A stretch of 64,000 bases of DNA, taken from the NCBI GenBank assembly GCA_973895155.1, contig OZ316892.1, positions 18,652,357-18,716,356 on the forward strand. The letters are read 5' to 3'. This stretch comes from Marsupella aquatica. Its lineage: Eukaryota; Plantae; Marchantiophyta. Each line of letters begins with the position of its first letter. The first letter of the stretch is position 1. The translations under genes were made by a program, and so were the position numbers. Under the pieces are notes generated by a model. The model made no database searches and was not told the DNA's origin. It saw nothing but the letters and a program-made list of their open reading frames with translations. Positions 1,983-31,595 of this stretch are shown here, piece after piece.

Positions 1983-1993
1983 GCCTGCGCATG

Positions 1994-2712: not shown

Positions 2713-3227
2713 TCAATGGTATATGGTCTGTGCATGCGATGTGACAAGTGGTCTTCTAGAGCATGTGATCCAAACATGTGTAGACACCAAAGTCACCGGT
2801 GGTGGGGTCTGGGAGGGCAGGACAAGTAACATCACCAGGCACACTGTAGGATGGCGAGTGGTTCCAGATGATACATTGTGCTCTGTGCAAAAATCGGCAT
2901 CCAAGAGAACGGTCATCCAATTCTGAGCCAGAAGCCCTACAGGTAGGACAGTCATATTGGCAACTGTGCACACACCCTTGGCACCTAATTTGTGGCGGGT
3001 CATGTACAAGAGACACAAATACCAAGGATATCGGGAAGGGTACTGAAGCAGGTAGAGGCCGGCTGTAGTTGTTCAAAGTACCATGCAGATTGGGCTGGAA
3101 GGATCCCAAGTCTGACATACTCAAGGCGCAACATCTCTGCCTTGCGTGCAAGCCGCACATGTTCAGCGTTGCGGGTCCTCACCATAAGTGTTGCTTTTGT
3201 TGTGATGTCCTCTGTTCACATCCTTTG
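2713..3227 (-). pseudogene. Frameshifted Cys/His-rich (PHD/zinc-finger-like) coding remnant, possibly upstream exon of the PHD gene at 1791-1982
   Basis: Joining frames gives ...GICVSC/..PPQIRCQGCVHSCQYDCPTC...LH...C...TC...TC.....*KTTCHIAC; same strand as the PHD fragment. Confidence 0.4.
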
Positions 3228-4289: not shown

Positions 4290-4630
4290 ATCTTCGAAAA
4301 GAAGCCCGCCACAATTAAGAACTTCGGTACTAGGTGAGGTATCAGAGTCGTACAGGTTATCACAACATGTACAAGGAATATCGTGATACCACGTTGAACA
4401 TCACTGTAGAGCAGATGTATGATGAGATGGCTTCTTGTCATAGAGTTTGGTTCCCTTGCATCCAGATCATCAAGACTACGACTGTCCCTGTCTCTCTGTG
4501 CAAGCGAGAAAGTACCAAGCAGTTCCATGATTCAAAGATCAAGTTCCCCTTGACGTACCGCAAGATTCAACCTCCATCGCGAAAGCTAAAGACGACTTAC
4601 AAGGCCACCAAGCCCAACACATTTGTTTGA
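4290..4630 (+). pseudogene. RPL18A: 60S ribosomal protein L18a (eL20) last-exon fragment with 1-bp frameshift
   Basis: CAG acceptor at 4287-4289, then IFEKKPATIKNFG, frameshift, [21 protein letters not shown]...[12 protein letters not shown]...KPNTFV*. No upstream RPL18a exons recognised. Confidence 0.92.
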
Positions 4631-7079
4631 GTAGTGCGGGTGCAGGTTCCCAATTTTGAAACAATTTGGCTCATTTTATGTCCCGAGGGACTCCAGGAGT
4701 TTATGTATTGAGTTTCTAGGTCAAGATACTTAATATAAGGCAATTCAATTATCACTTCGTTCCCAACTTCTATTAATTGAATATACACAAGCTGGAAGCA
4801 AGAAGACAAGCCACAATCTAGCATCTTAGCCAAACACAATCATCCCGACAAAGCAAAACTCAGCTGGACAGAAGTCACTCGGATCCACAAAAAATTGAAG
4901 ATTCACCTCCAAGCCGGAGGCCGATCACTTCAGTACAGCAGCTTCTGGACGGAACAAACTCTGCTCAGCCCCACAGAAACACAAATGTTAAGGCTCCAAG
5001 TCAAAGCTCACAAACAGAAACTCAGATAAATAACATTCAAAATCTGTCCAGGTTTGTGCAAAGTGTACATATTCATTCTTCTGGAATGAACACGCAATCC
5101 ATAAGAACGAAAGTAGGAAGGCATGCGCACAGGCCACCGAGAAAAGTAAAGGATGCATGTGTTAGTGGGGAGGGATCTTAGCAAAAACAGGGGAAAGCAA
5201 GGGAACTTGCTGCTAAAATCAGATGAACGATTGCACGGTTCCTATAAATTTAGTGGACCTTAAGGCCGTCTGTTCACCCCCCACCCCACCGCCAGAGCAC
5301 GGGGCACAAGGCATGTTCTGATACAGGGAGGAGCGAAACAGTCATGTCAAGCAAGAAGTGTGGAGAGACCAATCAGTAAGCAAAAATAGGGGAGAACATA
5401 CATACATCAGCAGCAGCAAGAAACAAGAAAGATGATTTCGGGTGGCATCTTAGGGTCGGGGACACCACTGCAACACCGGGACTTAGGATATGACTAAATG
5501 TAAGCTACACAGTCCTCCATTCTCTTCAACAATTACCTTAAACAGTGAAGTAATCTAAATGGATGTTGATCAAAATCAATTTAAACTACGCGGCCCTTGG
5601 TTCTGCTGCGGCTACAGCAGCCAAGAGAACAGCTCAGAGCCTTGATTGAAGACTGTGCTCTCAAACTAAGCTAAAGACAGAGAGATATAGAGAGAGACAA
5701 AAAAAAGTTGACAGGAGTGCAAATCGAGAACCCACTCCCATTCTTTCAACACCCTAAACCCCGCTGCTTGACTTAAGTTGCATGGCGACAGAAGCAGTCA
5801 TTGAAAACTTACCTTGTGATGACAAAAATGCTCTGGGATGGGCTGCTACTCCCAGGACTATCCCACACTCTCAGCGCCCCGTTGCTATTGAGCCACACTT
5901 CAGTTCAGCCGCGCACGCTCAATCTTTGTCATTCAGCTAAGTTCAGCTCCGCAGGGCCTGGACTCACTCTCATCCAATTTCAGTTGATCAGTATTGCAGC
6001 TCTTTGCTCCCAAGAACAGGTCCTTGCATTTGTTGAGCGCCTCTATAGACTCACTTACCTCCAAAAACACTGAAAGTTTTTATCTGCATTACAATGAGCT
6101 CTAAAGACCAAAAACATTCCCGCCTAAACTGAAACAGAGTCCGCAACTACAAGCTTTGTAGCTCAACTCTCTGAGCTCTCCCAGCTCAAAGGTATCAACG
6201 TGTTGTACCAACACTTGATCGAGCGCTCTTCCAACGCTCGCTAGGTTGATCTTCCAATGCTCACGGTAAGCTATGGACACCAAGCTCAGAAGACCGTGGG
6301 GAGACAACTAAACTTGCAGCGACATAGGACCGCAAAGATAGGGATTGCAGCTTTACCTGGGGTGATGCAGCACCAAGCCGCGCTGCGTAGCAATCCGCAG
6401 CAAGAATAGTCCAAATGCAAGCCAAGTGACAAGCTCCTGGTTCTCGATCCCAAGTTGCAACTGAATGTCGAATTCAATCTCCTAGCTTCAAGGAATGAGT
6501 GTCTATTGAATGTTGAATTAAATTCTTGCAAACTCTTCATAGTGCCTCCCGCAGTGCCTATTGTCGATGCAACACACAATCACTCTTGATGCCTACTACT
6601 CACATTCCCTTTTCTCAATGCAACACACACTCGCTCTTCTCGCCTCCTACTACTCACATTGCCCAACGATCAACAAAAGCAGAAGGACAGGACAGGGAGA
6701 ACCCTTTCGCACCTTAGGACGACAAGGCTAGGAGTGTATACACATCGGGCCGCAGTAAGGTCCAACCTCAACTTCAAAAAGTGCAACGCCAAAACTGGAA
6801 GCCGGGTCCAATAACAGTCGTTAGTAGGATGTCGTAAAACCCCTAAAGTTGCAGCATTGCCATACTCTGCTTCCTCACCCGATAGCGCTAGGCATTCAAC
6901 CTCCCTCTTCCAAAGACCTTGATGACCTCCCACCAGCTCAATGACGATGGCACGCAAAGCTTCCGTTTGGCTAGCAAACCCTTGAGGCAAACCGACTCCC
7001 TTGGAGACCCTTCCCAAAACCCTGTGCGGGAGAGAAATGCTGAACGCGAAGACCACTCACTTGTCTTCCCATTGAAGTG

Positions 7080-13856: not shown

Positions 13857-14383
13857 TAGCATGAACCTGTTAGCGGATGTCGAAGTAGGTAACGATTACC
13901 ACAGTAGACCACTGTGCCTCCTGCTCCACGAGTAGATCTATTGGGATGCTTTCTCCAAGTCCCTTTCATGCAGCACCTCCTACAAGCATAATAGCCCTTA
14001 ACACACCATCCACCAAATTTACATTGGGCTGGATGATCCCCTGTGAATATGCACAATTGACATCTACATCTAAATGTACTAGTTCGGATCATGGGATGTA
14101 TTATCTCAGGTTGGTAGGAAAAAGTGCAAATGAACCCATCAACAAATAGCTTTTGGAGATCTCTAATTAGTGGCTCCAAGAAAGCATCTAAATTATTGAA
14201 CTTGCGTTTGGTCAATTTCTCTGTCTGACTGTGCGGTATAAACAATACAGGAATTGGCTGCATGTCAGATCTGATGCCCATATTTAGTATACTAATTTCC
14301 ACAGTCCAGGTGCTTCGGTAACTAGACCTAGCAGACTGAAATCCGTCCCAATGAGCCATCAATGCCAGATTTCGAGGATCCCC
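13857..14383 (-). pseudogene. CACTA-like transposase core exon (Tnp2/Transposase_21-like)
   Basis: GDPRNLALMAHWDGFQ, LDAFLEPLIRDLQKL, GDHPAQCK, GYYACRRC. Confidence 0.85.
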
Positions 14384-14543
14384 CTGGTCACATGCAACAG
14401 AAGAATATATCCAAGAAAATAAGAACAAGCATTGCAAAACCAGTGGTAAAAAACATGAATGTGTATATGGAAACCAACCGTGAAGCAAAAAATTAGCCAA
14501 CAAACATATATATGAGATCTTGATTATTTAACATGATTCCTAC

Positions 14544-14710
14544 CTGTGAATGCATTTGCTGTGTCTTGATATGGGCCCCGCATGCACAATCAAACTCATA
14601 GAAAATAATTCCATTGTCTACAACCGTTTTCTCCTTCAGCAGGTCACATTTTTGAGGATACGTCTGGTAGGCAATGTAACATGACCGGCATAGAACGGGA
14701 AGCTCAAATG
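14544..14710 (-). pseudogene. CACTA-like transposase exon segment downstream of the MULE insertion
   Basis: ELPVLCRSC...CACG...MHSQ then GT donor; continues WDPTQTF from 26831 in frame once the MULE is removed. Confidence 0.8.
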
Positions 14711-15418
14711 GGGGAATTTACAAACGATAGCAAACAGATAACAGTAACAGGAAACAGATTCTGGTACCAGTTAAAAGGAGCTGTTACCAGTGAACAGTGT
14801 TTGGATGGTCGTGAACAGTGATCTTAAAAAAAGGTCTCAAAATCTCCATTTGAAAGTACAAGAATAGAAAACAAAACCACCAAACCCTCGTGATAAATAA
14901 AAGAACAACACGGAAACAATTTTTTGAAACATAAAAGACGGCTGCCAATTGAGATACACAAAATCCAAGACAAATACAAGTAGAAAAGAAAGGCCGGAAA
15001 AAACATTCGCATATATTATCGCAAAATAGAAAACGCGCTCGGCTTAAGTGATACAAAATGCAGTTATCAACATCAACAATCTGGCCTAAAATCCCATCCA
15101 TGAAGTCACGGTCGACACCGTCGGAGGTTTTCGACTAATACATGAACAGCGCTCGGCGCTAGCCAAAAACTAACTAGAAAACTAGTCATTTCTTGGAGAC
15201 AAGATGCGTCCAAACCCAGACAACATAGTCAAGATCCATTCCCTCCCACAAAATCCATTGTCATTTCAATAGCGCCCGACGCTAGCCAAAACCTAAATAG
15301 TAGACAACCAGGAAAACCCTAACGCCAGAGCTGAGGTCGACTTCAATGCCACAAAATCCAGAAAACTTTAGCAGCGCCCGGCGCTAGCTTAAAGCGATCA
15401 GCAAAACAAAATTTCCAT

Positions 15419-15880
15419 CTAGCTTTCCGAGTTGCAATCATCATCCACTCCTGCTGCTTCTCTCCGCCGATCTTTCTTGAAGCCGAGACCACGCAAACGA
15501 ACGTATCCCTCTCACGGTCCTCGATGAACAGCCTTTGTAAAATGTTCATTAGGAATATTACTGTCCTTAAAATCAACTCGCCCGAACATTTCTTGTACTC
15601 TTCGATCGATTGGGAGTACCCCATCAACAAGAACTCCCGGGTGAGACGAAAACTGACTAGAGAACGGAGGCGCAGGGGAATCGACAATCCAAGGGATGTT
15701 CTTCTCTCCAGGACTAATAGCCTCATCATACGGGAGAGCATGACGGTTCCGAAAAGTGGAAGTTTCAGTTTCTTCAGTCTCCATCCACGATTCAAAAGAG
15801 CTGAAATGGCTCTCTTCCGGACGCACACGAGAAGGACAAAAAGCTGCCTCCCAATCCATTGGCTCATACTGACTCGCCAT
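15419..15880 (-). pseudogene. Small MULE accessory ORF of unknown function (one internal TGA)
   Basis: MASQYEPMDWEAAF...VHRGP*EGYVRLRGLGFKK...NSES*; the TGA is explicable as CGA>TGA. Confidence 0.45.
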
Positions 15881-16014
15881 GTTTCAAAGATCCCGATCTA
15901 ATATGTAACCTCTCCTCCCGTAAGAACGTTGTCCGCGAGTGCTATAGCCGACAAAGGTCAAAGAAAGGTCCACGAAGACTAAGATGCCAGATAAAGGTCC
16001 GCGTACACTACCGT

Positions 16015-16380
16015 TCCGAAACGACCATCAAACTATCATCGTCCCATTCTATTGCCTCCCGAAACTATCTTCGCCTTGGTAACAGGTATCGTCCCATTCT
16101 ATCGCCCTGCTCTAACGTCCCGTTCTATCGTCTTCCCGAAACAAAGTCTTCCCAAATGAACTATCATCCCGTTCTATCGTCATCCCGAAACAAAGTCTCC
16201 CCTCCCATTCTATTGTCCCGTTCTATCATCCCGTTCTATCATCCTCCCGAAACTATCATCGTCCTCAACTATCGACGTCCCCAACTCTCGTTGTCCTGAA
16301 CAAACCTAAACTGAAACTATAGTCGTCCCTTCCACCCGGTCCCTAAACTATGGAATCATCGTCCCGAAACTATGGTCCCC
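16015..16380. repeat. Degenerate short-motif array (CTATCRTC / CCCGAAAC / CCCRTTCTAT)
   Basis: More than 10 interleaved copies visible upstream of the small ORF. Confidence 0.7.
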
Positions 16381-16694
16381 AACGGTTTTTCGACGACTGA
16401 CTAAAGAACACAATCCAAATGGCAGGTGGTATCCAATAACGATGACCGTTGACAAGAAACAACAAAGACTAAACGGCCATTTAGAGATTCCATTTGGCGA
16501 GCGCCAGGCGCTTGTAAAGAACAGAAGTCAAAAGTAATCAACAAGTAGAGAGAAATCAACAATTTAAAAGGACCCTCAACAGAGGGAAATAATACAGATG
16601 TTACAAGCACCGGGCGCTGCTAAAAGATTTAGCCTCAAATACCCACTACTTCTCACGGTTCCGAAGATTCTAAGTCGGAACCAAAATCTGTACT

Positions 16695-19600
16695 CTAGGA
16701 TCTGTCCGTGGACACAGCCTCATCATCTACGTACTGGCTGCGGGAGAAGTCATCAACATAAGGATGTTTAATGAACTTTCGGTCAACACCCCTTCGTAAC
16801 CGAAGACCTTTGTTTTCCCAGCAAAGTGTCCTTGCACTTTCTGCTTTCCTTGCGGCTTTCTCTGCATAGGAGGGAAGAACAAACGGTTTTTCCGGTGTTT
16901 CTACGTTGTTTCTCGCGATCTTCCTCCGTAGTTTGAATCGTCTCCTTGCATTCCACTCTGACCTGATATAACAAAGTCCATTTTGTAAGGCGCCTTTCCC
17001 CAAAACAACAAAAGAAATGTTTTGAATTGACGGGAATGGAGAAAGAAGCTTACGAGTTTATGAACATGACTCGGAAGAGTCATCACTATCGGTTTCATCT
17101 GCAGCTGCACGACGCTCTCCCTTTTCCTCCTTGGAGTTTCTTGTACCTTGTTCCTCTCCACCTTCACTCGATTCATCATCAGAATCAAAATTGAGAACCG
17201 ACCGAAGCTTATCTCTCTTTTTTTGTTGGCAGTAGGAATAGGTGGAGGTAATACTGCAATCTCTTTGGGAGACAACAAATCCATGAAAACCTTTGAAGCG
17301 GTTTCAATAAATTCTTTCCGGTGTTCTATCCCAAGTACAAATCATCCAGAGAAGTCGCCAGCAATGTAAGAGCCTCCAGCCCCAGCAGTCCAATCCATAA
17401 AAATATCACGAGGCCGTGTGACAAGCTCTATAACAGATTGCATAAAACCCACAGACAGACGAGCATTTCCAGCAAACTCCATTTGCGGGAATGGATCTGA
17501 TTTGAGCGAAGAGAGTCCGATCAAATTGGTAACCGAAGGGTCCTCATTGATGGACAGCGGCCAAAATTTGGGGTCTTTGGGAATTTTACATTTCCCATTA
17601 ATTCGGCCAAATATGTCGAGCCTGAGGGTAAACATCTCTCGGTCTGTCTTTGCCGCATACATTGGGTAAGACATCACAACATTATGCGAGCATATACACT
17701 GAAATTTCCTTGACTCCTGACATGTAGCAATGACTTGCGACATGGGATCGTACTCCCCATTGTGTAGAATTACAAGGAACCCATCATCTGATAAAAATGG
17801 ATCCATGGATTTGAAAAAAGATCTAGCCATTGAGTGATCTGGAATGTTCCATTTAGGAACCTTCTTATCAATGATAGATGGTTTGAACCCGGTCGGTAGG
17901 TAAATGAAGCCGGCATCCACTCCAAACGATCTTACTTTTCCCCCCTGAACAACTCCCTTCTCTTTAAATCCCAACTTAACGAGGTCTTTTCCCCATTTTT
18001 CCACATCACTAACCCACTTGGGCTTCTCCTCCTTGTTGAACGTCGAGTCAAAAAATTCAGAAAGGCTTGTCTCAACCATGCAATGGCGAGACACAGTTGT
18101 TTTGAAGTTTCCAACTTCACGTTGGAAACCAGAAGCTATAACACTCTCCCTTAAAGATTGTCCACCTTTGATAGCTCTCTTTCGTTTCTTCCTGGTACTC
18201 GTGGCGTCGATAGGAACTATAACCTTCCCTTTGTCGACTGGAGTAATGGGGTCCGATCGAGCTCCCGTGTTTGCCTCAGAAACTTCAGGTGTAGCATCCT
18301 TTTTCGTGTTCCCACCGTATTAGACTTCCTCCCTCCTAAAATATAACCAGGTCGTAGTTAGAATAAGTACTTTTAAAGTATTGAAAGAAGCTAGCGCCAG
18401 GCGCTAACCAAATGCAATTCACTTAAGTCGCAACCGAAGCCTAATAACCAAGAAAGAGAATACCCTCAATAGAATATTTTTTGCCAGCGCCTGGGGCTGG
18501 CAAAATCATGGATAGCAATACTTACTCTTCTTTCCAGATTTAGTAGACTCGCTCGGTGCTGCTAGCTCCCCCAGCCTTTGTAAACTAAAGAGGTATACGT
18601 GCGTACACCCCCCTCCTTAGTACCCCTTATTATTTTTGGAAGCCTATAAAAATTTCTCTTGTTATTCTTAAAAACTTAATTTTGGAGAATAAATCTGCCC
18701 CTTTGAGATATTATAATTTCACATTTTACACCATTTATGAAAGCCTTGAAAAGTTATAAATTCATCATTTGCACACGGTTCTAAAACTGACGGGAGTGTT
18801 TTGGAAGGGTTTTGGGTACATACATTTTTGTGTTCGTGACCCTTTAACCCCAAACTTCAACTTTGGGGCATTTTTGAACCACACGGTAGGGTAGTCAGGG
18901 TTCAAAAGCTCCAAAGTCCTAAACTACTCTGAATCATAGATATTGCAAGCATAATTATATGTCATATACACATGTTCCAATAAAGGGTGGCCACAAGGAC
19001 CAATCCTATTGTGACGCGTGTCACATCCATATTACATCACCTCTTGAAGCATATTAACTTGGGCAACATTTATATAAGCCTATATTAGTTAGAAAGGGTT
19101 CTTTGAATAAAACCATCCCTTGATATTTCTAAGCCAATTATAAAAATTAATCTCAAATCAGATTTTTTGCACCCTTCATCCGTTCGCACGTCCAACCCAT
19201 TATTAATAATGCTGGGGGCCCAGGGGCTAGCTCCGCTTTGGCTTTCGCGCGAAGTTTGCGACTCCGATCCACATGCACAACAGTTGTTTCACAGATAGTT
19301 TGCAAGTTTGTGGCAGACTTGTCTACATCGTCAAGTAGACCCTGCTTCATGTCGGACACAAGTTTTGCTGGCATCTGAGACTTTGAAAGCTTATGGAAGG
19401 CATCTTTTTCCCTTTCATCAAAAGGAGAATCCCATCTATCTGTATCTAGATACCAGGGGCAGTGAGTTCTCTCCCATTCTGTCATTGGTCTCGGAGGAAA
19501 TATGCCCTCCGTGGGGTACATAGAGTACAAATCAGCCAAGGCATCATCTTCACTTATTGAAATCCACTTCATAAAAGCTGCAGGATATGCCCAGAAGTAA

Positions 19601-21400
19601 TCAGGTTTGGTTGCCTCCATGTGCATGTAGAACCTATACACAAACCTCTTCGCTCGCTTCTGGTTTCTCTGGGTGTAATCTTCTTTGTCAGGGTACTTTG
19701 AAGGCCACATAGTGTGAAAGAACTTATTCTTCACGGAATCACCAAATCTCTTGAATTCATTTGTAACAAACTGAACTAGATCATCAAACGAACTACAATT
19801 CCACTCTTCCAATCTATTCGCGGGCATGGTTTGCTCAACTTCACGTAGACATGAATGTAACATGCCAGCAGCAATTCCCTCCACACTATTCCAAGTGATC
19901 CAAGTGTGGCACCACTGTTTGACTGGATCATCGTTAACACTTGCTGGGTGAAAAAACTGTCTCCGCAGCTCAAGATTGCAATGTGCCACAAGTAAAGTGC
20001 TTTGTAACTTTGGGTCTAGAGCAGAAACAGTGGTGAACAATCGTGCGCGGTCCATCGTACATACAACGGTGTCAGGCTTCTTCTCTCTCTTGTTTCTCTC
20101 TGTGACAGCATACATTTCTGCACATGTACTGAGGAAATCTTCAAATTCAGGACTTAATAAGGGTGTAATTTTTGAAGACTTCACTGCCCAATATTTGGTT
20201 GCGTCTTTCATCATGGCCGCATGCCGTTTTGAAATCTCGTCCGCCGACCATGGACTCCCTTGAGCCTCCGCTGCCTCCATGTCGAGTTTGAATTGATGCG
20301 AGTACGACTTTATCTTATTCTCACAAAGAATGTAAACAAGTGCTTCTTGTGGCATCTTCTTCGTATACCATGACCCCTTCCGAGTTTTCAGCCGAATGCT
20401 TTCAAACTTCTTGAAATTACCCGGGTCAATCAGTTTACTGTAATACTCAAGGTCATGCGCCAGAATTCGTTTGATTCTGTCCGCATCCAGGATCCAGGAA
20501 GGCTCTACAACTGCTTGGCCAAGCCTACACGAACAAACATTGAGAGTAAGAGTCAATGAAAAACAATTCATGTATAAGCAGCGCTGAGCGCTAGTAAATA
20601 CAGCACTCGCAAGATTTAAGGAAAGAACTGGAAATCATGAGAACTTACTGATTCACGGTGTGCATAGCTGCCTCAATTTCAATGAGAGATCCCTTGTCTC
20701 CTTTAAATATTGTACAGAGCACACGAGGATGATATTTTGGATTGTCCGGGTTCTCCTCTGTTACAAGCGTCCAGGAGTACAGCCTGTGATTTCCATCGAA
20801 TACAGAGAACATCTTATCCTTCAAGACGAGAAAATACGGGTCAGCCTCGCATTTAGCCTCAAACTTCTCATTCTCCAATTGCCATATTGGATCCCATGAA
20901 TCATGAATGTCCTGGGTACAGGTCAGAATAATTCCGTTCTCATCCGTTGGCTGCACATAGAAACGCATCCCTATCGAAGAGTTGTAACCCATACTACGAA
21001 AAGAGTCTTTCAGCTTCTCGATGGAAGAGCTGTCTTTCTATAGAGTACGAACCACCTCCATGTGAACCAATCGACACAGAGGGATTCGAGGCGGCTCCTT
21101 GTCAAATCCACGAGAATCCTTTCCAAAAGACATGACATGTTTCGAAATGAGATCAGTCTCAGCAAGCGCGCAATCCGCAACATCCTGGATCGCAATTGTG
21201 TCTACATTGTCCATCTTTCTTCGCAAAGGATTTGGACCCAAAACACCGCTGACAGAAGTGAGCGGCAACAACTTTGAGGAACGAGTTACACGATGTGTAT
21301 AGACTGAACCAGTAAATGAAGACTACGAAGATTCAGAATAAGCTCGCTCCTGGTCAGGAACCGCACTATACCCTCTAGAAGAAGAGGGGAATACCTCCAT
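16695..21400 (-). pseudogene. Multi-exon gene: ParB/Srx-like domain + helical middle region + beta-class N6A/N4C DNA methyltransferase-like domain
   Basis: Exon 1 21400-20649 (VRTL*...IEKLKDSF..MGY...VFDGNHRL). Intron 20648-20525 splices in frame. Exon 2 20524-18526 is interrupted by a MITE. Intron to 18336, then exon with VDAGFIYLPTG...FLSDDGFLVI...VIELVTRPRDIFMDWTAGAGGS...SG*FVLGIE. The exon 2/3 join needs one further lesion near 18300-18335. Confidence 0.75.
18569..19225. mobile_element. MITE copy 1 (TIR CCCTGGGCCCCCAGC, 8-bp TSD; left TIR missing its outer 8 bp)
   Basis: TSD GCTAGCTC at 18561-18568 and 19226-19233; near-identical inverted copy at 54148-54801. Confidence 0.92.
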
Positions 21401-22364
21401 CGTCTTCCTTCTAGAAGCGTACGAACTATCGTACAATGAAATTATGGAACTATAATCATCTCTGAACGTGTAATATATTCTAGTGGGAGGATGACATAAC
21501 CTAGAGGAAAGCCATTAGCTCTGATGTTTGGCGGTTTCCAACGTCTGTATACGAAAGGTTTAATTACCAAAATCAAACGGTAGAAGATGCGTAACACACA
21601 CGGAAGTCATAAGTTACCGTTGAATGTTACCGTTAAAGACATTTCCTAACATCATATCAATACTAGCGCCGGGCGCTAGCATTAATGATGACCATCAAGG
21701 TGAACAATTTAGAGTATGCTTATAATAGCGCCCGACGCTAGTATAAACTGGAAGAAATTTAGAGGTCTTTTTTGAAGGAGCTATGACATAAATTTTGGCC
21801 TTTCCACCCCCATATTTTATTAAAGTATCCTTCAATATATCGTTTACGGAGAAATATTTCTCAAATGTAATACTAGCGCCCGACGCTAGTATAAATGTTC
21901 ATTTATCATCCATAATCAATCAAAACCATCCTTTGAAGGCACCATTTATTCCCAATTACCACCTGGTATGTGGTCATAATGTTCATTTTCAGGGAATTTA
22001 TTCTATACTAGCGTCGGGCGCTAGTTTGGAATGTCAAGATTTCAGACACATTTTTAGTGGCGTATTTTAGTTAGCGCCAGGCGCTACTAAAATTTGACAA
22101 TACCTTGTCATATCTTATGGTCTGTTTAAGTAAGGTTGGTGATCTTTTTAGCAATATGTTCGTGTCTGACATCCGGACTTCTCGGGGAAAAAATGACAAA
22201 AATCATTTATGGTGCCAACGGATCCTCCATCGTCTATGTTTTATGTCGTATACAAACGGATCGGTTAACGTCAAATTCCCAGGTTCAATAGATATAAGCT
22301 GAACAATACCATGAACTTTTCTTCTTTCAAACGCTATAGCCCTCGGTTTTTGTTTTTGTTCACC

Positions 22365-25300
22365 ATGTCTCGGTCTATCGTTCTTTCTCGATTCGGTTAT
22401 GAAGATATTGTGACTATCCCCGTCCCCATGGAAGATACGTACAAGCAGGTCCGGGAGAGGTATCTTTGCGGGAGATTTGATTTGAAGATGAATGACATTG
22501 AGGCTATTGTTCGAGAGCTCGAATCCATTGATGATATCAAGGATGCTGCAACATTCAATGTCAATGACGGTGAACGGTTTTGGCATCTCTACGCAGGGAT
22601 CTCATACTCGGTTCGTTTAAAACAGCATGCAAGACTGTCCAGTTTCCCGCCGGTTCCATGTGATGTGGTTGAGATTTCTTCAAGTGAGGATGGAGATCGT
22701 ACTCTAAGTCCATCGTCAAAGAAGAAAAGCCTGCTCCCTGCTGCGTGAAAGCTGAGACTCCGGGAAGCTCTAAGCAGTTGGAGGTCGTGTACCGGCGCAG
22801 TGCGATGGATACGTTACTCAAATCAACTGGTCATAGTGAGTTGTCACGGTTCATATCAGCGGGTGATTTCAGGCATGAACAAGTGTCCTGTCTGCCAACT
22901 AAGTACAATGGTAACGTCGTGTTTGAGTTGCCGCCCATTGATAAGATGCTCTCTAAAGGCTCTAGGCTTAGGGACATGGATCGTGCCAAAGATTGTTACA
23001 TTTGGACATGCATATTTCCAATAACTGCAACTGTTCATCCTAAAAACCTTTGGCAGTTTAGGAAGGTTACCTGTACGGGATTCATTGAATGCAGGAACAA
23101 GTCCTGCGACTATTTCCAAAGGAAGAAGAAGGCAAATGGTAAGGCATGGCAGGGTACTCCAAAGCTCAGTGGTCAGTATGCTGTGGGATCTTTCATCGAA
23201 GAGGGAGGTGTTGTTTGTCATTACTGCGAACAGATTCCTTTTTGTGTGAAGTACTGCCCTGCCCGTTTGTTTTACATGTACCCCCAAGTATTACTTGATG
23301 CGGAAACATGTAGTCATATGTCTCGCCTAGCAATTCATATAGGTGAGCACAACCATCCAGGTAGAAAAACCTTCTGTAGGAGTGCGGAGAAGATAGCTGA
23401 GGATCTAATTAAAAAAAACATGAAGCCAATCCTCTGTCAAAACCGGCAGGGATCTTGAATTCTGCTACAGGGTCCTTAGTGAAATCTCTCTGCGAACATG
23501 TTGACGACATGGTCGATATCGAAGAAACTGAATATGGAAGTCTCTGATGGTCCTTTCCACTCCGTAGAAGTTTGCATCTCTTTGTCGGAGCGTTAGGATA
23601 GACCAAAAAGGTCGGGGTGAATTAGATTTTCTCTCGCAAATGCAGAGGAGAATTCATGTGTCGTTTCTCCAGAGGTATTTGCTTCCAGGTCAGGGATGTC
23701 AGAACGATAGGCCTCACATCTTTAAAATGACCGTGAAAGGTCACGGTTCCGGTGTGGATCTTTTGAGGCAGATGCAACCGGGTGGCAGACTCAAAGGAGC
23801 CTGGGTAAGTTTCGATGTGATGCAGCGTGTCACCACGGATTGGTTTACTTTCAGCGCACACGTCTACGACCACAATTTCCGTGCACTATGTACAATTTTC
23901 ACATGCGAGTTGAAAGGTGAAGACACTGAGTCCTTCGAAAAGGCATGGAGAGTGATGATTGAGGTTTGCAAAGAAAATGAACTTCAGGAGGTTGTCATCC
24001 AAGGATTTATGGCCGACAATGCACAAGCTGGATGGAATGCAGTGCGAAATGTTTTTTTTGGTGGACACCCGGACCCGGAGAGGGAGCGCTCTGATGCATT
24101 TCACTTTTATCAATCTTTTCATCGTCATTCCAAGGAAGGAGTACTGGAAGAATGTCAATCGGAGCATCGGAGACTTTGGGAGAAATTGAGAAATGCTCCA
24201 TCATTTGTGGCAGCATACCGGGTGTCCCGAGAGATTGTTGTGTGGTGGCAATCAGGAAATTGTGTCCCCGGAAAGCTGAAGATGCTGCAAAGTTGGATAT
24301 CTTGGTGGGTTGTTCGCTGGCGCCAGTGGGGCAATTTTATTCGAGTGGTAAGGCATCCATCTATCTAGACTGTAATGTTCATCAACTTCATATTAGCGCC
24401 AGGCGCTGGTTATTTTCTCCATACACGTCAAAACAAGTAGTACAAGAAATTGAAGCCAATATGTAGTTAGAATTCAGTATTAAACATTGAAATTGTATTT
24501 CAGGCCTGTTCTACATATTTATGTTGCCAGCGCCGGGCGCTGGTAATAGAATACTACTTACGGTTGACATTTTCGTATGGCAGAGCAAAAGCTCTGAGGA
24601 AGGTGCCTTGATCCCCAACTGTACAGGGTCAGAATCAAGGCATGCGTCCATGAAAGCCTCGGCTACAAAGAAAAAGGTCGGTCTTTATGAAGCTTGCGAA
24701 GTTGACCAAAACCGTGCTGTCTCAAGTTGCCGGATACAGTGCATACCGTAAAGGCTTGAACCGGGGGAAGGGGCCAACTATATGGGAATTGGCGTTCCGT
24801 TCCGCCGATCAAGCAGGTTCGCCAAGATTGTTTGAAGAAGCGACTAATATGCTTCTATCTAACGCAGCAGAATTTGATTTGGAAAGAAGTACTCCCCTGA
24901 ATGGAGATATAATGACGAAGTCAATGAAGAGGAAGGGACATGCAACTGGGACTGTCTCTCCACAAGATTCCCATCGGCATGACACCATTCTAATAACCAC
25001 ACCAAATACTCGTGGTTTGAAAAGGAAGAACCTGAACAGAACTGACTTTTCTTCTATTCCCTCAAGTTCTGATCATCCTGTCACAAAGGCGGTGAATCTC
25101 TCAGGTATGGTCACATCAGAGAGTGATACTGATTCACTGGACTATACTCCTCAAACAACCCAAACAACAAGATCCTCAAAACCTCCGCTCAGTGCCCCAG
25201 CAGCACTTCAGAATCAACTTCCACGCACGATTGTGCTAGAGAAGGATGTCCCTCCGGGGCAGTGGCAGTTGCGACGGACATCGAAGTATGGAGCAGGTCC

Positions 25301-26111
25301 GCAATGCAATGGTACACTGAATGGGAGTTCGGATCGCGATGAGTGTCAAAATCGTATCAAGAAGGTTGGCTTCCATTCGTCTGAAGGTGTTGTCGGAATT
25401 GTCGTGAAGGGCCATCGTCTCTTCAGGGGCGAACCCATCTCCGAAATGATTTGGTTTTGCCCGAACCAAGCGTGTTACAAGAGTCATCCGCGTCGTGGTG
25501 TTCAGAAGCTTCCTCCTTTTCCTGACATTTTGCCTGTTCTGAAGGGTACGAGCCTATCTCCTTCTGAAATTACATTCCTGGAAGAGCAAGGACTTGTCTT
25601 AGCGCGAACAACAGGATTGAGTCAATCTGCGCCATCTGCTTTTGACCTCAGGATAAATGTTAATGTGTTCCCAGAAACAATAAGGTTTTTGGAGCCGAAT
25701 CTCCGACTTGGTAGTCGAAATGGGAGGAACTCAAGGCCTCGGTCTAATCTCACTGTGGGTCACACAAAGCGAATGGAGTCTGCACGACAAGAAGTGATGA
25801 GTTTGGATGGGGAATGGAATGTTCAGACCGGAAATGCTTTTGGAAAGCAATTTCGAATTCGAACCCATGAGAACCATCGATCACCAAGCACATACTTCGT
25901 CCAAATCTGTATCTTCCCCGCTTGCTCTTGTGAAGACTTCTTCCTCCGACATTCGCGTGGCAAGTCGTACATGCCTTGCAAACATCTATACTGGGTGTAC
26001 ATAAATGTTTTCAAACTTGAGATTGAGGAGTCGACTCTTTGTAGCCAACCTATTTTGACTTTAGGCGAAGTCAGGCTTGTGCTGGAGAGGCAGAACTTGA
26101 ATGGCTTATGA
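22365..26111 (+). pseudogene. MULE-type transposase: WRKY/GCM1-like Zn finger, DDE core, C-terminal SWIM finger
   Basis: CTGFIECRNKSC...CHYC...CPAR...HIGEHNHP; SFDVM...GFMADNAQAGWNAV...AFHFYQS; intron ~24348-24583; SESRHA; CSCEDF...PCKH. Several frameshifts and stops. Confidence 0.85.
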
Positions 26112-26823
26112 GAGAGATCGAAACTGCCCAATAGGTCGTCGTTCAATATAACGGTTATTCCCTATTTTGTCTTTTTCCAACAGATATTTTAGTTGTTTTA
26201 TTGAGACTTTGTTGGTTAGCGCCGGGCGCTGGTTCTAGGAAACTGGATATTCATTGCTTCATTATGTACGTGCATTGTGGAAGAATGACCTCTTGTTTTA
26301 TTTAAAATGTGTAAGTTGATTAAATTGTCTACTGTCTTCAAAGCCTCGAGGATGTGATTTGTCATTTGTTTGTGACGTTACAAGGTCCATTTAATCAACT
26401 CCTTTAGATTGGGTTGATTTGGACTCCACGATTGAATGTGCTATGGTGGGTCCCACTCTAAGGGTCACTATTTGGTGATGAAAATAGATTGATTTGCATG
26501 AATGTTTCTTTAGGCACACCCCTAATACCATGTTTTTTATCTTCTACAATAAATTGTTGTGTCAATGGAGGATTGATAGTACACTTCATCCATCGGATGG
26601 CACAAAATAATTGTTTGTTTTAAACTTTATTACCCCCCGAAAAATTATGTCATTAGAGTGGTGGATATGCACCTTAGAGTGGTGGATATGCACGTTATGG
26701 TTCAGGCAAAACTGGTAACAGGGACAAGCTTACTGGTAACAGGTACAATTTCCCTGTTAACAGAAAATAAACCCCTGGTAACAGGTTTTCTGTTTTCTGT
26801 TTTCTGTCATGGCTATCATACCC

Positions 26824-27355
26824 CTCAAATGTTTGAGTTGGATCCCAAAACCAGGACTTTGCTTTGGCTGCAGATCCATCCCACCATTCCTGGATGACAT
26901 TTTCTGGAGGAGTATTACCACTGTGAAGCCACCTGCCTCGATCTCGCCACATAGTGAGGATCTCATGACAAATACTTCGAGACAAGCACAATTTGCGGAT
27001 CAATGGTGCTATGGGGATGTAATCAAACTTTAGCATATCTTTCCGTTTCTGACCACATCCAGGAAATGTGCACCGCTCAGTACAGGTTTCACAGTCTCTT
27101 TGAAGGACCCATGACAAGTTTGCCCCAATGCCAGCTTGGCAAGAACACTTAAGAGAAGTTGAAAAATTCAAATCCTCTTGCTTGCTTGGACCAAAGACAA
27201 GAGCTTCATGATGGTTGTCTAGGGATCCAAGGCACATTCGCCACCGCTCAGGTTGTGGGGGCCCATGGTCTGATAGGAAGCTTCCAAACCCTTGAAGGTT
27301 CCCAATGATGATAAGCCAAAAGGTCCACCAGCCCAAGCAAGGCCAGCGTGTCTAA
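26824..27355 (-). pseudogene. CACTA-like transposase segment between Harbinger and MULE insertions
   Basis: Cys-rich region, then FDYIPIAPLIRKL...IQEWWDGSAAK...WFWDP. Confidence 0.8.
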
Positions 27356-28307
27356 GAGTCATCTTGCATGTGCAAGTCCTATAAAAAACCGGCCCTTACC
27401 TGCCCACGAACATAGGGAAAAAGTAGGTGACCAAATCAAACCAGAATCTTCCAAATCAATACGTGCAATGCTCCCACTCGGTAGCATGTCCTTCTCTGTC
27501 ATTTCCACTCTGTCGTTTCCACCCTTGAGAATATAGGCCGGTATGCGGGAGCTCCTGCAGCAAACGATGTCCCTGTAAAATGTCACAGGTCCCTCTATAA
27601 CCCGGATTACATGCGACAATGCTCGCTTCTCATTTCTACTTCTTCAAACTCCCGTATTACCATGCACAGTGCTCACTTCTCTTGTTCCCGGCCTGCAGCG
27701 AACTTCTGCAACCTCCGAACTCCAGCTCATTTAACACACATAGTGCCCAAGGACTCCAACAGAGTGACGGCTTGCCACTACGTTTGTTGTCTCCGCCAAT
27801 GCTGGGACTGTGCTTACGATTTCATCCACATTGCTCGCTCTTGGCACGACATTGCAATTGTGATCTTCATTTATTAGAATTCTTGGTACATATGATGAAC
27901 TCATTCACTGCTTTTCAATGTGCGAAGAAACCGAAGCCCCAATGTGTAAAGAATATCGAACCCACAATGTGCCTGATAGATTAATTTTTACTTTCATTCT
28001 TTGTGGAGGCCTTTTCCGGTCAAACTATTCAGCTGGTGCCCGAGATTGCGCAATGGTGCTTTCAAACGAGGAATTGGAAATAATATTGTCCACAATTCTT
28101 GTTTTGCAGCAATTGTTCTTGTTGCAACTACAATTGTACACTCTTCTTGCCAATAATTTGATACCACAAAGATGTGACAATGGTTCACATTTTGCTAACT
28201 TGCTTTGACTCTTTCAGATTATTCAGCATGCGTTTTGCAGAGATTATCATCATATTTCGGGGAATTACATTGAGCCAAGGTCAAGAGAGTGGAGTGGCTG
28301 GTATCTC

Positions 28308-29393
28308 ATGCATGTCATTGAGCAGGATCCTGTTCGCTTCAAGTATTTGTTTCGGGTGTCACCGGCAACGTTCATGTACATTTGTGACCTGGTTAGAGAA
28401 GACATGACAACAAATCCCCCGCCTGGCCTCCGCAATTTGACAAACAGGACATTGTCTGTTGAGCGCCAGGTTGCCATAGCCCTTCGTCGGTTTTCCAGTG
28501 GTTGCTTGTTGTTGACACTTTCAGAGATGTTTGGAGTTTCTGTCCCATGCATATCGGAAGTCATTTGGCAATTTGTGAAGGCTATAATTGTGCGAGCAAG
28601 GGGGAGACATTTGAGTTGGCCACAAGGAGAGGCCATGGCAATGGTGAAAGAAGAATTCCGCCAACTGCAAGGATTCCCAAATTGTTGTGGTGCAATTGAT
28701 GGGACTCATTTTCAAGTGGAGTTACCTCCTGGAATGAATTCCATTGATTATCGTGACTATAAGCATGGTCAGAGCATTTCCATGCAAGGTATTTGTGATA
28801 GTCGCCTTTGTTTTTTGGATGTCTTTGCAGGATGGCCTGGCAGCATTCAAGACTCACGACTTCTAAAAGTATCTGGATTTTGCAACGATGTTTTGGTACA
28901 CCATACAAAACTCTCAGGTCCAACATTTACATCACCAACAGGATTTCGTACAGGGGAGTATGTTATTGGCGATGCTGGCTACCCTGCTTATCCGTGGTTG
29001 ATAAATCCTTTTCCTTCTGCAATGGAGCATAGCCGGGAGAAGGAATTTAACTACATGTTGAGCTCAACCAGGATGTGCGTGGAGCATGCTTTTGGTCAGT
29101 TAAAGAATAGTTGGAGATTTATTTCACACAAAATATATCGGCCAGCTCCTTATCGACTACCGCATTACATTACTTGTGCGTGCATTCTTCACAACATCCG
29201 TATTGACCGTGGAGATGCTTATGACCCAGCTTGGGGGATAGACCCAGACCCCCCTTATGAACCCGGAGGTCCCCCTGCTGCACATCAAACTTACAATAAT
29301 GGACGTAGATATCGTATTGCAATGATGAACCATTTGCTCCCTCAGAGAGAGTGGGAACAGGAACAACAAAGACGTCGTGCTGCCCCTTACTAG
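28308..29393 (+). CDS. Harbinger transposase (HARBI1-like DDE_Tnp_4 nuclease); true start probably near 28053 via a short intron
   Basis: FRVSPATF, GAIDGTH, GWPGSIQDS, IGDAGYP, RMCVEHAFGQLKNSWR, CACILHN; uninterrupted 361 aa. Confidence 0.93.
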   Translation: MHVIEQDPVRFKYLFRVSPATFMYICDLVREDMTTNPPPGLRNLTNRTLSVERQVAIALRRFSSGCLLLTLSEMFGVSVPCISEVIWQFVKAIIVRARGRHLSWPQGEAMAMVKEEFRQLQGFPNCCGAIDGTHFQVELPPGMNSIDYRDYKHGQSISMQGICDSRLCFLDVFAGWPGSIQDSRLLKVSGFCNDVLVHHTKLSGPTFTSPTGFRTGEYVIGDAGYPAYPWLINPFPSAMEHSREKEFNYMLSSTRMCVEHAFGQLKNSWRFISHKIYRPAPYRLPHYITCACILHNIRIDRGDAYDPAWGIDPDPPYEPGGPPAAHQTYNNGRRYRIAMMNHLLPQREWEQEQQRRRAAPY

Positions 29394-29579
29394 AGATAAT
29401 AGACTGTGATCAGTTATGTCTTTCCAATTGCAAAAGGCAAATTTGAAATAAAAACTTCAATTGAAATGTGCATGAAAGTGTCATCATGTAGTCTTATGTA
29501 GTTGTGAGGCCCATTGTACTACACTTGATGAAAATGTAGGTACTTGCTTCTATAGACAAACTAAACAAATGCTAAGTCT

Positions 29580-30742
29580 CTATTGTGTAGGTTGTGAAGA
29601 ACTAGCAAGCTTCTCCATAAGGACGTCAGTCAAACGTGTCATCTGCTCGGTTGCTGCAGTTAAAACCCTCTCTTGTCGTTCTCGAACTTCACACTCACGT
29701 TCTCGAATTTCACTATCATGCTTGGCCGTAGATGCCATCTTCGCACAACTGTTGGCCATGGTTTTCAAATGGCCTTGTTTGTCACTACTAGACTTGAAGG
29801 CCTTTCGCTTCACACCTCTCTTACTCGGGCCAGAAAACTCCTGAGGAGATGATGGTTCTCTCACTCCACCAATATGCTCAGTGTTCTGTTCCGCACTCTC
29901 TTGTGTTGGTTGTGAGCAGTGATTTTGGCTCATAGGTACAGACCTATGTTCATCAACCTCAACATCATCACCTGCAAATAAAAGAAATAGAAAAGTAAAG
30001 AAAATGAGACAAAAAATATTAGTGGGCATGAAAATGTGTGATACATACAAACAAACTACTTGCACAATAGAAATCAATTAAAAAACAAAAACCCACTTGC
30101 ACTTGATAGTACAATATTGAGATAAGAACTTGTAAGTAACTTCTTACTTTCTGATGACAAGATGAACGGATCTGGCCTTGGGTTCCGGTCCATAGTAGAA
30201 ATGTCAGATAAAAACCTTGTAGGTGGAGTAACACGAGGAATACGTGCATACCACTCTAGCAATTCCTCATACAGGTCAACAGAGAAATTAGTGGGGAATT
30301 GATCATTGTGTCGCTGTTTGTCATCCATGTCAAAGTAAGAAATCTGCCCGGTTTTCTCCTTCTTCTCATAATCATAAATCAATTTGAACTTGCTCTCAAT
30401 GATCTGCCACTTCTTCTTACAAGAGTTTGGATCTCGAATAGGATTAGTAAATCCCTCATCCACCATAAACTTTGCCACAGCTTTCCATTTCAACTTGCTG
30501 CTGGTCATCTTCTTCTGTGTTGAGCCTTCCATAACAACATTGTGATATTCATTCCACTTTGCTGCAATGAGAACCTTCATCTCCTTGTTGGTCCAATCTG
30601 GCAACTTACTCTTTCCTTGAGGCCGTGGTGCATCAGTGGGACAGGCTGTAGCTACATTGTTGAGATCCAAGTCACGCAACGGCTCACATTGTCGTGAGGA
30701 TGCACTATGGCCTGCAACGCCACTCAGGTTCTAGCTCATCAT
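29580..30742 (-). pseudogene. Harbinger Myb/SANT-like (trihelix) DNA-binding protein, 2+ exons
   Basis: WTNKEMKVLI...KWKAVAKFM...RDPNSCKKKWQ; intron ~30145-29973; coiled-coil C-terminus; one early TAG near 30731-30733. Confidence 0.85.
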
Positions 30743-30938
30743 CTGAAAAGGACATGATAAAATGCAAATATATATCATTGTCAAGAAGTTCACAAAATGA
30801 TCAAGCAAAAATTTATTTATTTATTTTCACAATGAATCATAATGGTATAGAAAGTACACTGCCAAAACTAGCTAGGTTTGATAAGTTTGACCTTCTATCT
30901 ACCTCTAAGGTTCCTTTCACAAGGATCTGGTCCTACAA

Positions 30939-31595
30939 TCAAGGCCCCAGGCCAAGAGAATCACTATCCAAGCAAAGTTTTTTCCTAGGTTTTGCAGGAT
31001 GAGCATCACGCTCATGAATTGATGGTCCTGTGCTATTTGACACATAAGCATTACACACCAAAGAATCTACTAGTGGAAGAGGACTTTTGCCCTTCAACGC
31101 ATGTGTCTTTCCTGGATCTATTCTCTGTGAAATCATCTTTGATAGATTGGGGGAAATTGGGACCAGGGGTTCCCGTGCTCCTATCACAAGTTTTGCGGGG
31201 GCTGCATTCTCCATAGAGATTGCTCTGGGCTTCTGGCCTGTCCTCTGCAGTATCTGAACAACCTCAGATTGCAGGTCTTCCAATGCCTTGTTGTCACTGT
31301 GAACCTGCTGGTTTTCAACTTTCAACCTATCAATTTCATGCTTCAATATCTGGGTCTCTCTACCCAGGTTTTTGGCAATAGACATCTCTATCTGAAAAGC
31401 AGGCCAAAGCTCTTCACAAAACACTGACTCCGCGTGAGTCAAGTACTCCTTTGCCTTTTTCATCCTCCCCATATATTTCTCTGCAAGGTTCTTCAAATCA
31501 TCTCTGCCAGGCTCCATGGAATAGTCCCTGCCCCTGAAAGGAATTGTAATAATAATAATCACCCTTTGGAGGTCTACTTTATAGGCACTAGACAA
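30939..31595 (-). CDS. Coiled-coil ORF inside Harbinger element (third gene or 5' exon of Myb gene)
   Basis: 218-aa open frame with heptad-like stretch LKHEIDRLKVENQQV...LEDLQSEVVQIL. Confidence 0.45.
   Translation of the reverse strand: MSSAYKVDLQRVIIIITIPFRGRDYSMEPGRDDLKNLAEKYMGRMKKAKEYLTHAESVFCEELWPAFQIEMSIAKNLGRETQILKHEIDRLKVENQQVHSDNKALEDLQSEVVQILQRTGQKPRAISMENAAPAKLVIGAREPLVPISPNLSKMISQRIDPGKTHALKGKSPLPLVDSLVCNAYVSNSTGPSIHERDAHPAKPRKKLCLDSDSLGLGP

Follow-up and report, generated by a model that had tools for sequence, protein, structure and literature searches.

A decayed, probably Mutator-like transposon with a spliced accessory gene of candidate ParB–methylase type and sixteen private palindromes

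The 64,000-nucleotide stretch of Marsupella aquatica contig OZ316892.1 analyzed here (the window) contains a 12,113-bp transposon which unites, between two copies of a target-site duplication (TSD), a probable transposase gene, a spliced accessory gene on the opposite strand, and 16 copies of one palindrome. We read this element as a decayed copy of an abundant, probably Mutator-like cut-and-paste transposon, whose accessory protein is predicted to bind the 16 palindromes and to act on the element's own copies. This is a tentative reading, which in our judgment falls just short of being probable. The coordinates of all features of the element are collected in Table 1.

The element and its private palindromes

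The element is flanked on both sides by the 8-bp sequence CTCAAATG. Contigs from four public sequencing runs were compared with positions 14000–27500 of the window for joints, depth, and indels, and the empty site was found in two contigs of run X1 and two of run X2, in which position 14702 is joined to 26824; 12,121 bases are skipped, and 8 letters are ambiguous in that they fit either side. Because this joint represents the uninterrupted host repeat, an insertion with an 8-bp target duplication is proven, and the boundaries that the initial annotation had derived from the letters alone are exact. The insertion host is a CACTA tnp2 gene, whose open reading frame (ORF) at 13856–14527 matches Pfam PF02992 (Transposase_21/tnp2) with an E-value of 9.9e-12. 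The terminal repeats of the element are imperfect; GGG..GATAGC..ACAG(A)AAACAG and CTGTTACCAG are common to both ends in a gapped alignment, the latter being present in one copy at the left end and in three reverse-complemented copies at the right. An Rfam scan of 14000–27500 gave no match.

Summed contig depth in X1 was 368–1708 inside the element versus 87–92 in its flanks, and in X2 it was 591–5222 versus 302–311. The matching contigs, 1395 in X1 and 2376 in X2, ranged in identity from at least 99% down to less than 90%. From the high depth and this wide spread of identities it follows that the element family is abundant and of mixed age.

When one mismatch was allowed, the palindrome AGCGCCNGGCGCT was found 15 times where 0.04 matches were expected, and none of 100 shuffles reached this number. 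At up to two mismatches there are 16 copies, all of which lie in noncoding DNA of the element while the other ~52 kb of the window hold none, just as had been noticed in the initial annotation. The consensus with its flanks is TTAnTAGCGCCnGGCGCTAGTAAAA, and some copies are palindromes of 23 bp (ATACTAGCGCCNGGCGCTAGTAT). All 16 avoid the ORF and exon segments (55% of the element's own DNA), for which uniform placement gives P ~3e-6, a value to be read with the proviso that the copies are not independent. No noncoding compartment is without them: they occur in the subterminal region at either end, in three intron-like gaps, in the promoter region that the two genes share, and in the 3′ flank of each gene, with a spacing of typically 62–148 bp between neighbors.

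Outside the window the palindrome is found in further contexts. In X1 and X2, contigs that match the palindrome and about 10 bases only add a two- to four-fold depth at these positions. In run X5, which carries another organism label, matches to a 501-bp intergenic stretch of the element fall almost only on the palindromes, with a summed depth of 25,236–31,107 at 21654–21687 versus 0–32 elsewhere, on contigs of 31–64 nt with unrelated flanks. A 31-nt palindrome-centered word reaches a single-contig depth of 3000 in this run, where little else of the element is found. Some palindrome-bearing repeat is hugely amplified in the X5 organism; run X6 gave no contig match on the same 501-bp stretch. 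The extended palindrome is conserved across contexts in which the surroundings have diverged, and it is genomically more widespread than the present element, although the additional contexts may belong to relatives of the family that have diverged or are non-autonomous. With regard to genome-wide commonness, which the initial annotation had named as grounds for refutation, the palindrome is abundant in the genome and not strictly private to the element, yet the window holds no copy outside it.

A second class of private repeats consists of direct copies on one strand, of which 0.34 (TCCCRTTCTATYG) and 0.18 (TCCCGAAACTAT) were expected; this cluster possibly represents transposase sites. Two adjoining 21-bp tandem duplications, TTAGAGTGGTGGATATGCAC(C/G) and ACTGGTAACAGG.., each present twice, were seen at 26653–26752 in the right subterminal region. 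At 15335–15901, in the left noncoding region, three stop-free frames of 123–188 codons overlap within 560 bp on both strands; these have no Pfam match, and X5 contigs match this part at ~97%.

The plus-strand gene is probably the transposase gene. Its second and third ORFs are separated by an intron-like gap (24369–24653), and several 1–2-bp indels relative to other copies leave it frameshifted in the present copy. By eye, we recognized an N-terminal C..C...HNH zinc-finger pattern, FMADNAQA...DAFH, and a C-terminal CxC-x16-CxH pattern (SWIM-like), as well as D..D and D(2)H-like strings. Together with the GGG termini and the 8-bp TSD, the three patterns are compatible with the Mutator superfamily, and the length of CTCAAATG, confirmed by the empty-site contigs, lies within the ~8–11 bp expected for its TSDs. 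Since hAT, P, and Zisupton elements typically have 8-bp TSDs as well, this length is not diagnostic for Mutator. Searches of the three ORFs for the DDE core of Mutator-like elements (MULEs; Pfam PF10551 and relatives) found no Pfam transposase family at E ≤ 10, which in a frameshifted copy is a weak miss; the sole Pfam result on these ORFs is a chance match to NRN1. The MULE transposase of the initial annotation is thus weakly supported, by the TSD, the GGG termini, and the zinc-finger patterns read by eye, and finds no backing in Pfam; by anatomy, the element is probably Mutator-like.

Table 1. Features of the transposon and its insertion site (window coordinates)
Feature	Position	Strand	Remarks
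Left TSD copy	14703..14710		CTCAAATG; sequence and empty-site joint
Transposon	14711..26823		begins GGGGAATTT, finishes ATCATACCC
Right TSD copy	26824..26831		CTCAAATG; sequence and empty-site joint
Exon A	20649..21214	-	from first in-frame ATG (predicted start codon); motifs RIPLCRLVH...SIEKLKDSFRSMGY...FSVFDGNHRLYSW
Exon B	19226..20524	-	middle domain of unknown family; motifs HCPWY, RAKR..YRF, YFW.YP
Exon C	17061..18335	-	basic linker, PF01555-like domain (...RPRDIFMDWTAGAGGSYIAGDFSG(stop)FVLGIEHRKEFIETASKVF), acidic tail; end and tail predicted
Nested insertion	18561..19225		665 bp; short repeat unrelated to the element; 9-bp duplication GGAGCTAGC; interrupts end of exon B
Probable transposase gene	22688..26111	+	three ORFs: 22688-23458, 23568-24368, 24654-26111
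Palindromes 1-3	15148, 15271, 15373 (15148..15385)		left subterminal region, 437-662 bp from left end
Palindromes 4-5	16500, 16606 (16500..16618)		downstream of accessory gene
Palindromes 6-7	18393, 18486 (18393..18498)		intron B/C
Palindrome 8	20580..20592		124-nt intron A/B; 2 mismatches, AGCGCTGAGCGCT
Palindromes 9-13	21665, 21727, 21875, 22010, 22073 (21665..22085)		divergent intergenic (promoter) region; some 23 bp
Palindromes 14-15	24395, 24529 (24395..24541)		gap between transposase ORF2 and ORF3
Palindrome 16	26218..26230		107 bp past transposase stop, 593 bp from right end
Second private repeat class	16042..16373	+	direct copies on one strand: 7x TCCCRTTCTATYG, 4x TCCCGAAACTAT

The accessory gene and its domains

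The accessory gene occupies positions 21214–17061 of the minus strand, opposite the transposase ORFs, and its three exons (A–C) are joined by GT..AG introns, in agreement with the divergently oriented spliced gene that had been proposed at the outset. Exon A ends at a donor GT at 20648–20647 (AATCA/GTAAGT), and the acceptor AG of exon B lies at 20526–20525, which gives an intron of 124 nt. The final 33 bases of exon B (18528–18560) are separated from the remainder by the nested insertion, without which the frame stays open up to a donor near 18528; an intron of ~190 nt follows, and exon C starts at 18335. Contigs that lack the nested insertion, with 18560 joined to 19226, are present in X1, X2, and X5. 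The inserted ~660-bp repeat, of which a 96% copy is found 35 kb away on the opposite strand (54145–54794), probably represents a non-autonomous transposon from a different family.

Relative to the commoner copies, the present copy has a 7-bp deletion at 18307/18308, and the extra 7 bases restore the frame into an ORF at 18319–17345. In-frame stops are found in exon A (TAG, 21040–21038) and exon C (TGA, 17344–17342), and a 1-bp deletion near 17217 in exon C is probable. With the nested insertion and the 7-bp deletion taken into account, the frames close and the splice sites are canonical, and the intact product would have about 1,060 residues. With its two stop codons, the 7-bp deletion, the 665-bp insertion, and the transposase indels, the present copy is indeed dead, as had been stated from the start.

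Exon B has four relatives with E-values of 3.7e-128 to 2.2e-72 and identities of 33–48%, all of which are ORFs of 456–506 residues, and the alignment contains 83 invariant columns. Exon C has one relative, P0005, with 63% identity. A scan of metagenomes for relatives of exon B yielded one locus from 47 pattern matches: a 1.9-kb contig (L001), on which an exon-A-like piece lies upstream of an exon-B-like piece. Exon A shares 60% identity with L001:3–242, including FDGNHRLYSW, and the exon A of L001 displays a frameshift relative to that in the window near ENPFI/ENPDNPKYHPRV. Because relatives of the three exons exist at 33–63% identity and L001 links exons A and B, the accessory gene is a real gene and not a chance ORF.

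The ~900-nt intron of L001 between the ParB-like exon and exon B contains 12 copies of GAAGCC-N4-GGCTTC at up to two mismatches versus 0.15 expected; positions 430–1010 form a tandem array of ~20 bp periodicity, the units of which are these palindromes. Thus, a related element has both the cargo gene and palindromes, though a different palindrome, which favors our reading; the co-variation test proposed in the initial annotation has in this way succeeded in one instance.

The cluster names of the five relatives read only "hypothetical protein." A pattern scan for relatives of exon B found none in viral contigs or prokaryote genome contigs, and a word-based search found no longer proteins that contain it. 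Its weak matches are Pfam NRN1 (E 0.0064) and phrog_26121 (E 0.18, function unknown), and its best score in the protein Atlas, 0.80, is uninformative. We also considered exon B as a PAG3-like 2-oxoglutarate (2OG) oxygenase and rejected this assignment: inspection by eye revealed no HxD..H among the 83 invariant columns, and there was no profile match.

The clearest domain assignment concerns exon C, which we searched with X in place of the TGA; throughout, the matches fell on one stretch of ~60 residues (RPRDIFMDWTAGAGGSYIAGDFSG-X-FVLGIEHRKEFIETASKVF). As separate ORFs, the pieces of exon C had no Pfam match, and without read-through there was no PDB match. The first match in every library (Pfam, PDB, PHROG, NCBIfam, and PADLOC) was a DNA methylase, with E-values of 0.011 for PF01555 (16.1 bits, under the Pfam gathering cut-off of 26.7), 0.0033 and 0.0056 for DpnA in the PDB (5hek/5hfj), 0.067 for phrog_3008, 0.047 for PRK13699 of NCBIfam, and 7.7e-5, 4.5e-4, and 1.1e-3 for three Type II methylase models (MTase_II) of PADLOC; in those libraries that have curated cut-offs, the matches lie below them. 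A tblastn search of phages returned 85 records. Among the best 20 rows, 17 name a methylase and three are unannotated; among 60 rows spread along the ranking, these numbers are 51 methylases, eight unannotated or hypothetical entries, and one protease. Plasmids gave 285 records, with a methylase named in 38 of the 40 listed, and a wrong-frame query used as a negative control returned five records and no methylases. Three of the weak phage matches are natural fusions of ParB_N and PF01555.

Alignment with hhalign to six verified PF01555 proteins gave a probability of 81% (E 1.2e-5), which with 11 such proteins became 90% (E 1.5e-6). The S-adenosylmethionine (SAM)-binding motifs X, I, and II (..P..diVLDPF.GSGTT..A....GR.fiGiE) are matched by RPRDIFMDWTAGAGGSYIAGDFSG(stop)FVLGIEHRKEF, and the stop aligns with the invariant Arg of GR..IGiE, which fits a change of CGA to TGA. 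By these profile comparisons, the tail of the accessory protein is homologous to the SAM-binding half of the PF01555 (N6/N4) DNA methylases. Of the methyltransferase-like motifs that the initial annotation had seen in this gene, the SAM-binding half is therefore borne out by PF01555, whereas an active enzyme is unsupported, motif IV not having been placed.

The N-terminal domain is more elusive. Exon A, alone or as a profile, gave chance matches or none with PDB sequences, and the seven plasmid records returned by tblastn all stem from one chance match in Azospirillum. When exon A was aligned with six ParB N-termini in hhalign, both conserved blocks were colinear (E 0.14); nine ParB references, of which three are natural phage ParB–methylase fusions, gave an E-value of 0.026, which became 0.0041, with a score of 24.8, when the match columns were taken from the first sequence. 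This last alignment places RIPLCRLV...SIEKLKDSFRSMGY at the start of the ParB domain. Under column shuffling, which is a lenient null, scores had a mean of 12.6 (standard deviation 2.2, maximum 20.8) and none of 150 reached 24.8, and the reversed sequence scored 11.6. With six references, FSVFDGNHRLYS had been paired with the G.rRl box, a pairing absent from the extended alignment. The DGNHR motif is conserved in the window and in L001, and the phage fusions carry DGHLR/GGHQR.

Further leads come from other libraries. The sole NCBIfam match of exon A is TIGR03187 DGQHR (DndB-type, E 0.12), which falls at the DGNHR motif, and PADLOC returned PD-Lambda-5_A (E 0.01). In the Atlas, the language-model neighbors of the intact 130-residue ORF of exon A, with scores of 0.91–0.94, include DUF6551 clusters, fungal DUF3723 clusters, and a cluster in which 11% of the members carry ParB_N. 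[quoted passage not shown] We consider it distinctly probable that the N-terminal domain adopts the ParB/Srx (ParB-CTPase) fold, mostly because of published precedent. The ParB/Srx-like motifs recorded earlier are thus weakly supported: the hhalign E-values (0.004–0.14), the shuffles, and the Atlas leads speak for them, and neither Pfam nor the PDB provided a match.

These observations also bear on the possibility that the minus-strand gene plays no part for the element, being captured or decayed cargo as in Pack-MULEs, or that its domains are misassigned and are neither ParB-like nor methylase-like in function. Such a view would fit a pseudogene whose domain matches stay under curated thresholds in every library and in which the catalytic motif was not found. 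It is nevertheless very unlikely, given that ORFs of 456–506 residues are conserved at 33–48% in four other sources, that exons are linked in a second element, that no host-gene counterpart was found among 5.8 billion clustered proteins, and that 11 independent methylase references agree on the same segment. In addition, the architecture equals that of a transposon accessory protein for which a description has been published (PMC12477816).

What may bind the palindromes

If our preferred reading is correct, the accessory protein would load as a dimer at the palindromes, in the manner of ParB at parS, and the methylase-like module would mark nearby DNA on N6 of adenine or N4 of cytosine; alternatively, if inactive, it would bind DNA or SAM. 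The element would thereby recognize itself, and this recognition would counter silencing by the host or regulate the divergent promoter, acting in trans on all copies bearing the palindrome of the family.

The base composition of the element offers a possible trace of such an effect. The element has an observed/expected CpG ratio of 0.81, or 0.79 when the perfect palindromes are left out, and of 1.06–1.10 in its palindrome-rich left noncoding and intergenic parts, against 0.39 in the rest of the window (0.16–0.68 in 2-kb bins), 0.39 in the CACTA flank, and 0.48 in the nested insertion. This could reflect a young family or an escape of its active lineage from cytosine methylation. A bolder version of our reading would have a phage-derived, ParB-type nucleotide-gated clamp with an amino-methylase-like domain keep a plant Mutator-like family unsilenced, by loading on the family-private palindromes, spreading, and blocking or replacing host cytosine methylation. 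We regard this version as doubtful. If true, it would explain a CpG content twice that of the neighbors, and it would amount to VANC-like anti-silencing built from prokaryotic parts and shared from algae to plants, across transposon superfamilies.

Several points weigh against the predicted binding of the accessory protein to the palindromes. The link between the two is a prediction drawn from sequence; the present copy is dead, and the high CpG could simply mean a young family. ParB_N (PF02195) was undetected in exon A by Pfam, PDB sequence search, and tblastn; the ParB probabilities of hhalign are low (0.4–8%), and the AlphaFold2 models, with predicted local distance difference test (pLDDT) values of 32.8 (exon A, two-sequence alignment) and 30.3, were unusable. 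Neither a helix-turn-helix (HTH) nor another DNA-binding module was identified in the accessory protein, and for exon B, the middle 440 residues, no match in Pfam, PDB, PHROG, NCBIfam, or PADLOC names a known family. At the other end of the protein, hhalign recognizes only the C-terminal half of the methylase domain, the N-terminal half being without confident alignment. No string of the form (D/N/S)PP(Y/F/W), the catalytic motif IV, occurs in exon C or P0005; a guess by position alone would place it at FGVDAGFIYLPTGF (YLPTG), with DDGFLVILH 35 residues later, and this candidate site is conserved in P0005. Because this DPPY motif is missing, the methylase-like domain is possibly inactive. Finally, co-variation of palindrome and protein can be followed at one related locus only (L001), and the palindromes could equally be transposase sites.

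This last point deserves attention, since repeated subterminal transposase sites are common in DNA transposons. The palindromes would then be bound by the transposase or its complex, to help synapsis or to regulate the promoter of the element, and the accessory protein would have nothing to do with them. The zinc-finger patterns that we read by eye in the transposase suit short DNA motifs, the accessory protein has no identified DNA-binding module, and four of the 16 palindromes lie less than 700 bp from an end. The other 12, however, lie in introns and the promoter region, well away from either end, and L001 has its own palindrome array within the intron of the accessory gene. The end-specific CTGTTACCAG and the direct-repeat cluster are better candidates for transposase sites, and in the algal precedents, as far as described, inverted-repeat arrays lie beside the ParB-like gene (bioRxiv 10.1101/2025.02.11.637652). 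On balance, we consider it unlikely that the palindromes serve the transposase.

Host factors could also be responsible. The palindromes would in that case be cis-regulatory or structural DNA (transcription factor sites, insulators, or hairpins) or a self-spreading repeat, and their pairing with the accessory gene would be coincidental. Five palindromes do lie in the divergent promoter region, and many further contexts, which in X5 reach a very high depth, contain the palindrome with ~10 flanking bases, although these may be diverged or non-autonomous members of the family. Such an origin is hard to reconcile with the absence of copies from the remaining 52 kb of this transposon-rich window, with the avoidance of coding DNA and occupation of every noncoding compartment of the element, and with the different palindrome found at the same place in a related element; we judge it quite improbable.

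As to its surroundings, the window is a nest of DNA transposons. A PIF/Harbinger-type pair at 28209–30730 comprises a DDE_Tnp_4/Plant_tran transposase ORF (E 4.8e-31) and an opposite-strand Myb_DNA-bind_4 ORF, and a second CACTA-type region at 48895–52484 has DUF4218 (E 7.9e-36) and DUF4216 ORFs. DUF4216, DUF4218, Plant_tran, and Myb_DNA-bind_4, which these other elements carry, are plant-type families, and it is from them that the sequence itself marks the genome as plant-type. On the minus strand, an ORF at 56450–57280 encodes an NSD-type PHD finger (PF22908, E 2.8e-9); it belongs to a host gene or is transposon cargo.

Comparison with known systems

The Ectocarpus transposon Sola1-1_Ec32 encodes, opposite its transposase, a 1,104-residue protein with ParB-like and N4C/N6A-methylase domains, which its authors propose to bind and modify its own transposon (PMC12477816). 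Going by that description, the likeness to the present element is considerable: in both, a large DNA transposon carries the gene in the orientation opposite to that of its transposase, the product has a similar length (1,104 versus ~1,060 residues), and ParB-like and N4C/N6A-type methylase domains are combined. The differences are that Sola1 resides in a brown alga and the present, Mutator-like element in a plant-type genome, and that a palindrome array is not mentioned in the description of the Sola1 element.

In red algae, as reported in a preprint, PAG2 (PF01555 with SET) and PAG3 (ParB-like with 2OG oxygenase) are found on Plavaka, Mutator, and Zisupton elements; in Bostrychia, tandem inverted-repeat arrays adjoin PAG3, and self-binding is proposed in comparison with VANDAL (bioRxiv 10.1101/2025.02.11.637652). 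According to this account, these elements share with ours a PF01555 module and a ParB-like N-terminal module on DNA transposons, as well as inverted-repeat arrays that adjoin the ParB-like gene, and the ParB similarity there is detectable by HHpred only, much as in the present element. There, however, the two modules are in separate proteins, whereas here they occur in one polypeptide around a middle domain of 440 residues and unknown family; likewise, PAG3 is accompanied by one tandem array, whereas our palindromes are dispersed over all noncoding compartments, including introns. Among the features of the algal accessory genes, the following were found here: an opposite-strand gene in a DNA transposon, a PF01555-like module and a modestly supported ParB-like one, and palindrome arrays.

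Fusions of ParB_N and N6_N4_Mtase in phages and prophages are the subject of one survey (PMC12704722), and Dam-type methylases fused to ParB-HTH have been noted in chlorophytes and chytrids by Iyer et al. (PMC4738411), to the extent that these sources describe them. The phage proteins, such as those of Wolbachia phage WO and Streptococcus Javan phages, resemble the present one in the order of the ParB-like and PF01555 parts and in the DG(H/N)xRL box after the first strands. They differ in having ~400–420 residues, no middle domain, and canonical DPPY cores, whereas the present protein is ~2.5 times longer, spliced, and without a recognizable motif IV. The likeness to bacterial ParB–parS consists in dimeric loading at 13–16-bp palindromes of the replicon, which for the present protein is a prediction, and in the GxxR box region, retained here as DGNHR; in contrast to that system, no ParA partner and no recognizable HTH or C-terminal dimerization domain are present here, and the setting is a eukaryotic nucleus.

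With VANC the resemblance is one of concept only, in that an accessory protein of the Mutator superfamily goes together with motifs repeated in the noncoding DNA of the element. VANC of Arabidopsis VANDAL21 is reportedly an anti-silencing protein that targets short repeated motifs in its own noncoding DNA, with loss of methylation; those motifs are said not to be palindromes. The present element is known from its anatomy and high CpG alone. Binding of the palindromes by its accessory protein, if real, would give transposons a second, independent way, after VANDAL/VANC, of recognizing themselves and escaping silencing by the host.

The initial annotation had put the element forward as a candidate new system. 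That proposal does not hold, since the same pairing and the idea of self-binding were published in 2025 for brown and red algal transposons; the element adds to a recently described kind and is not a new class or system. No ParB–methylase accessory gene of a land plant or a MULE is reported in the open-access papers and bioRxiv full text that we searched. If the reading is true, the phage-type ParB–methylase fusion would be shared by different transposon superfamilies of brown algae, red algae, and a plant-type genome. Beyond what was reported for algae in 2025, the present element would add a single-polypeptide form, ParB–X–methylase, on a Mutator-like element in a plant-type genome, with palindromes spread across introns, promoter, and subterminal DNA; one palindrome turnover, which provides a handle on specificity swaps; and a CpG signature which suggests that the family escapes cytosine methylation.

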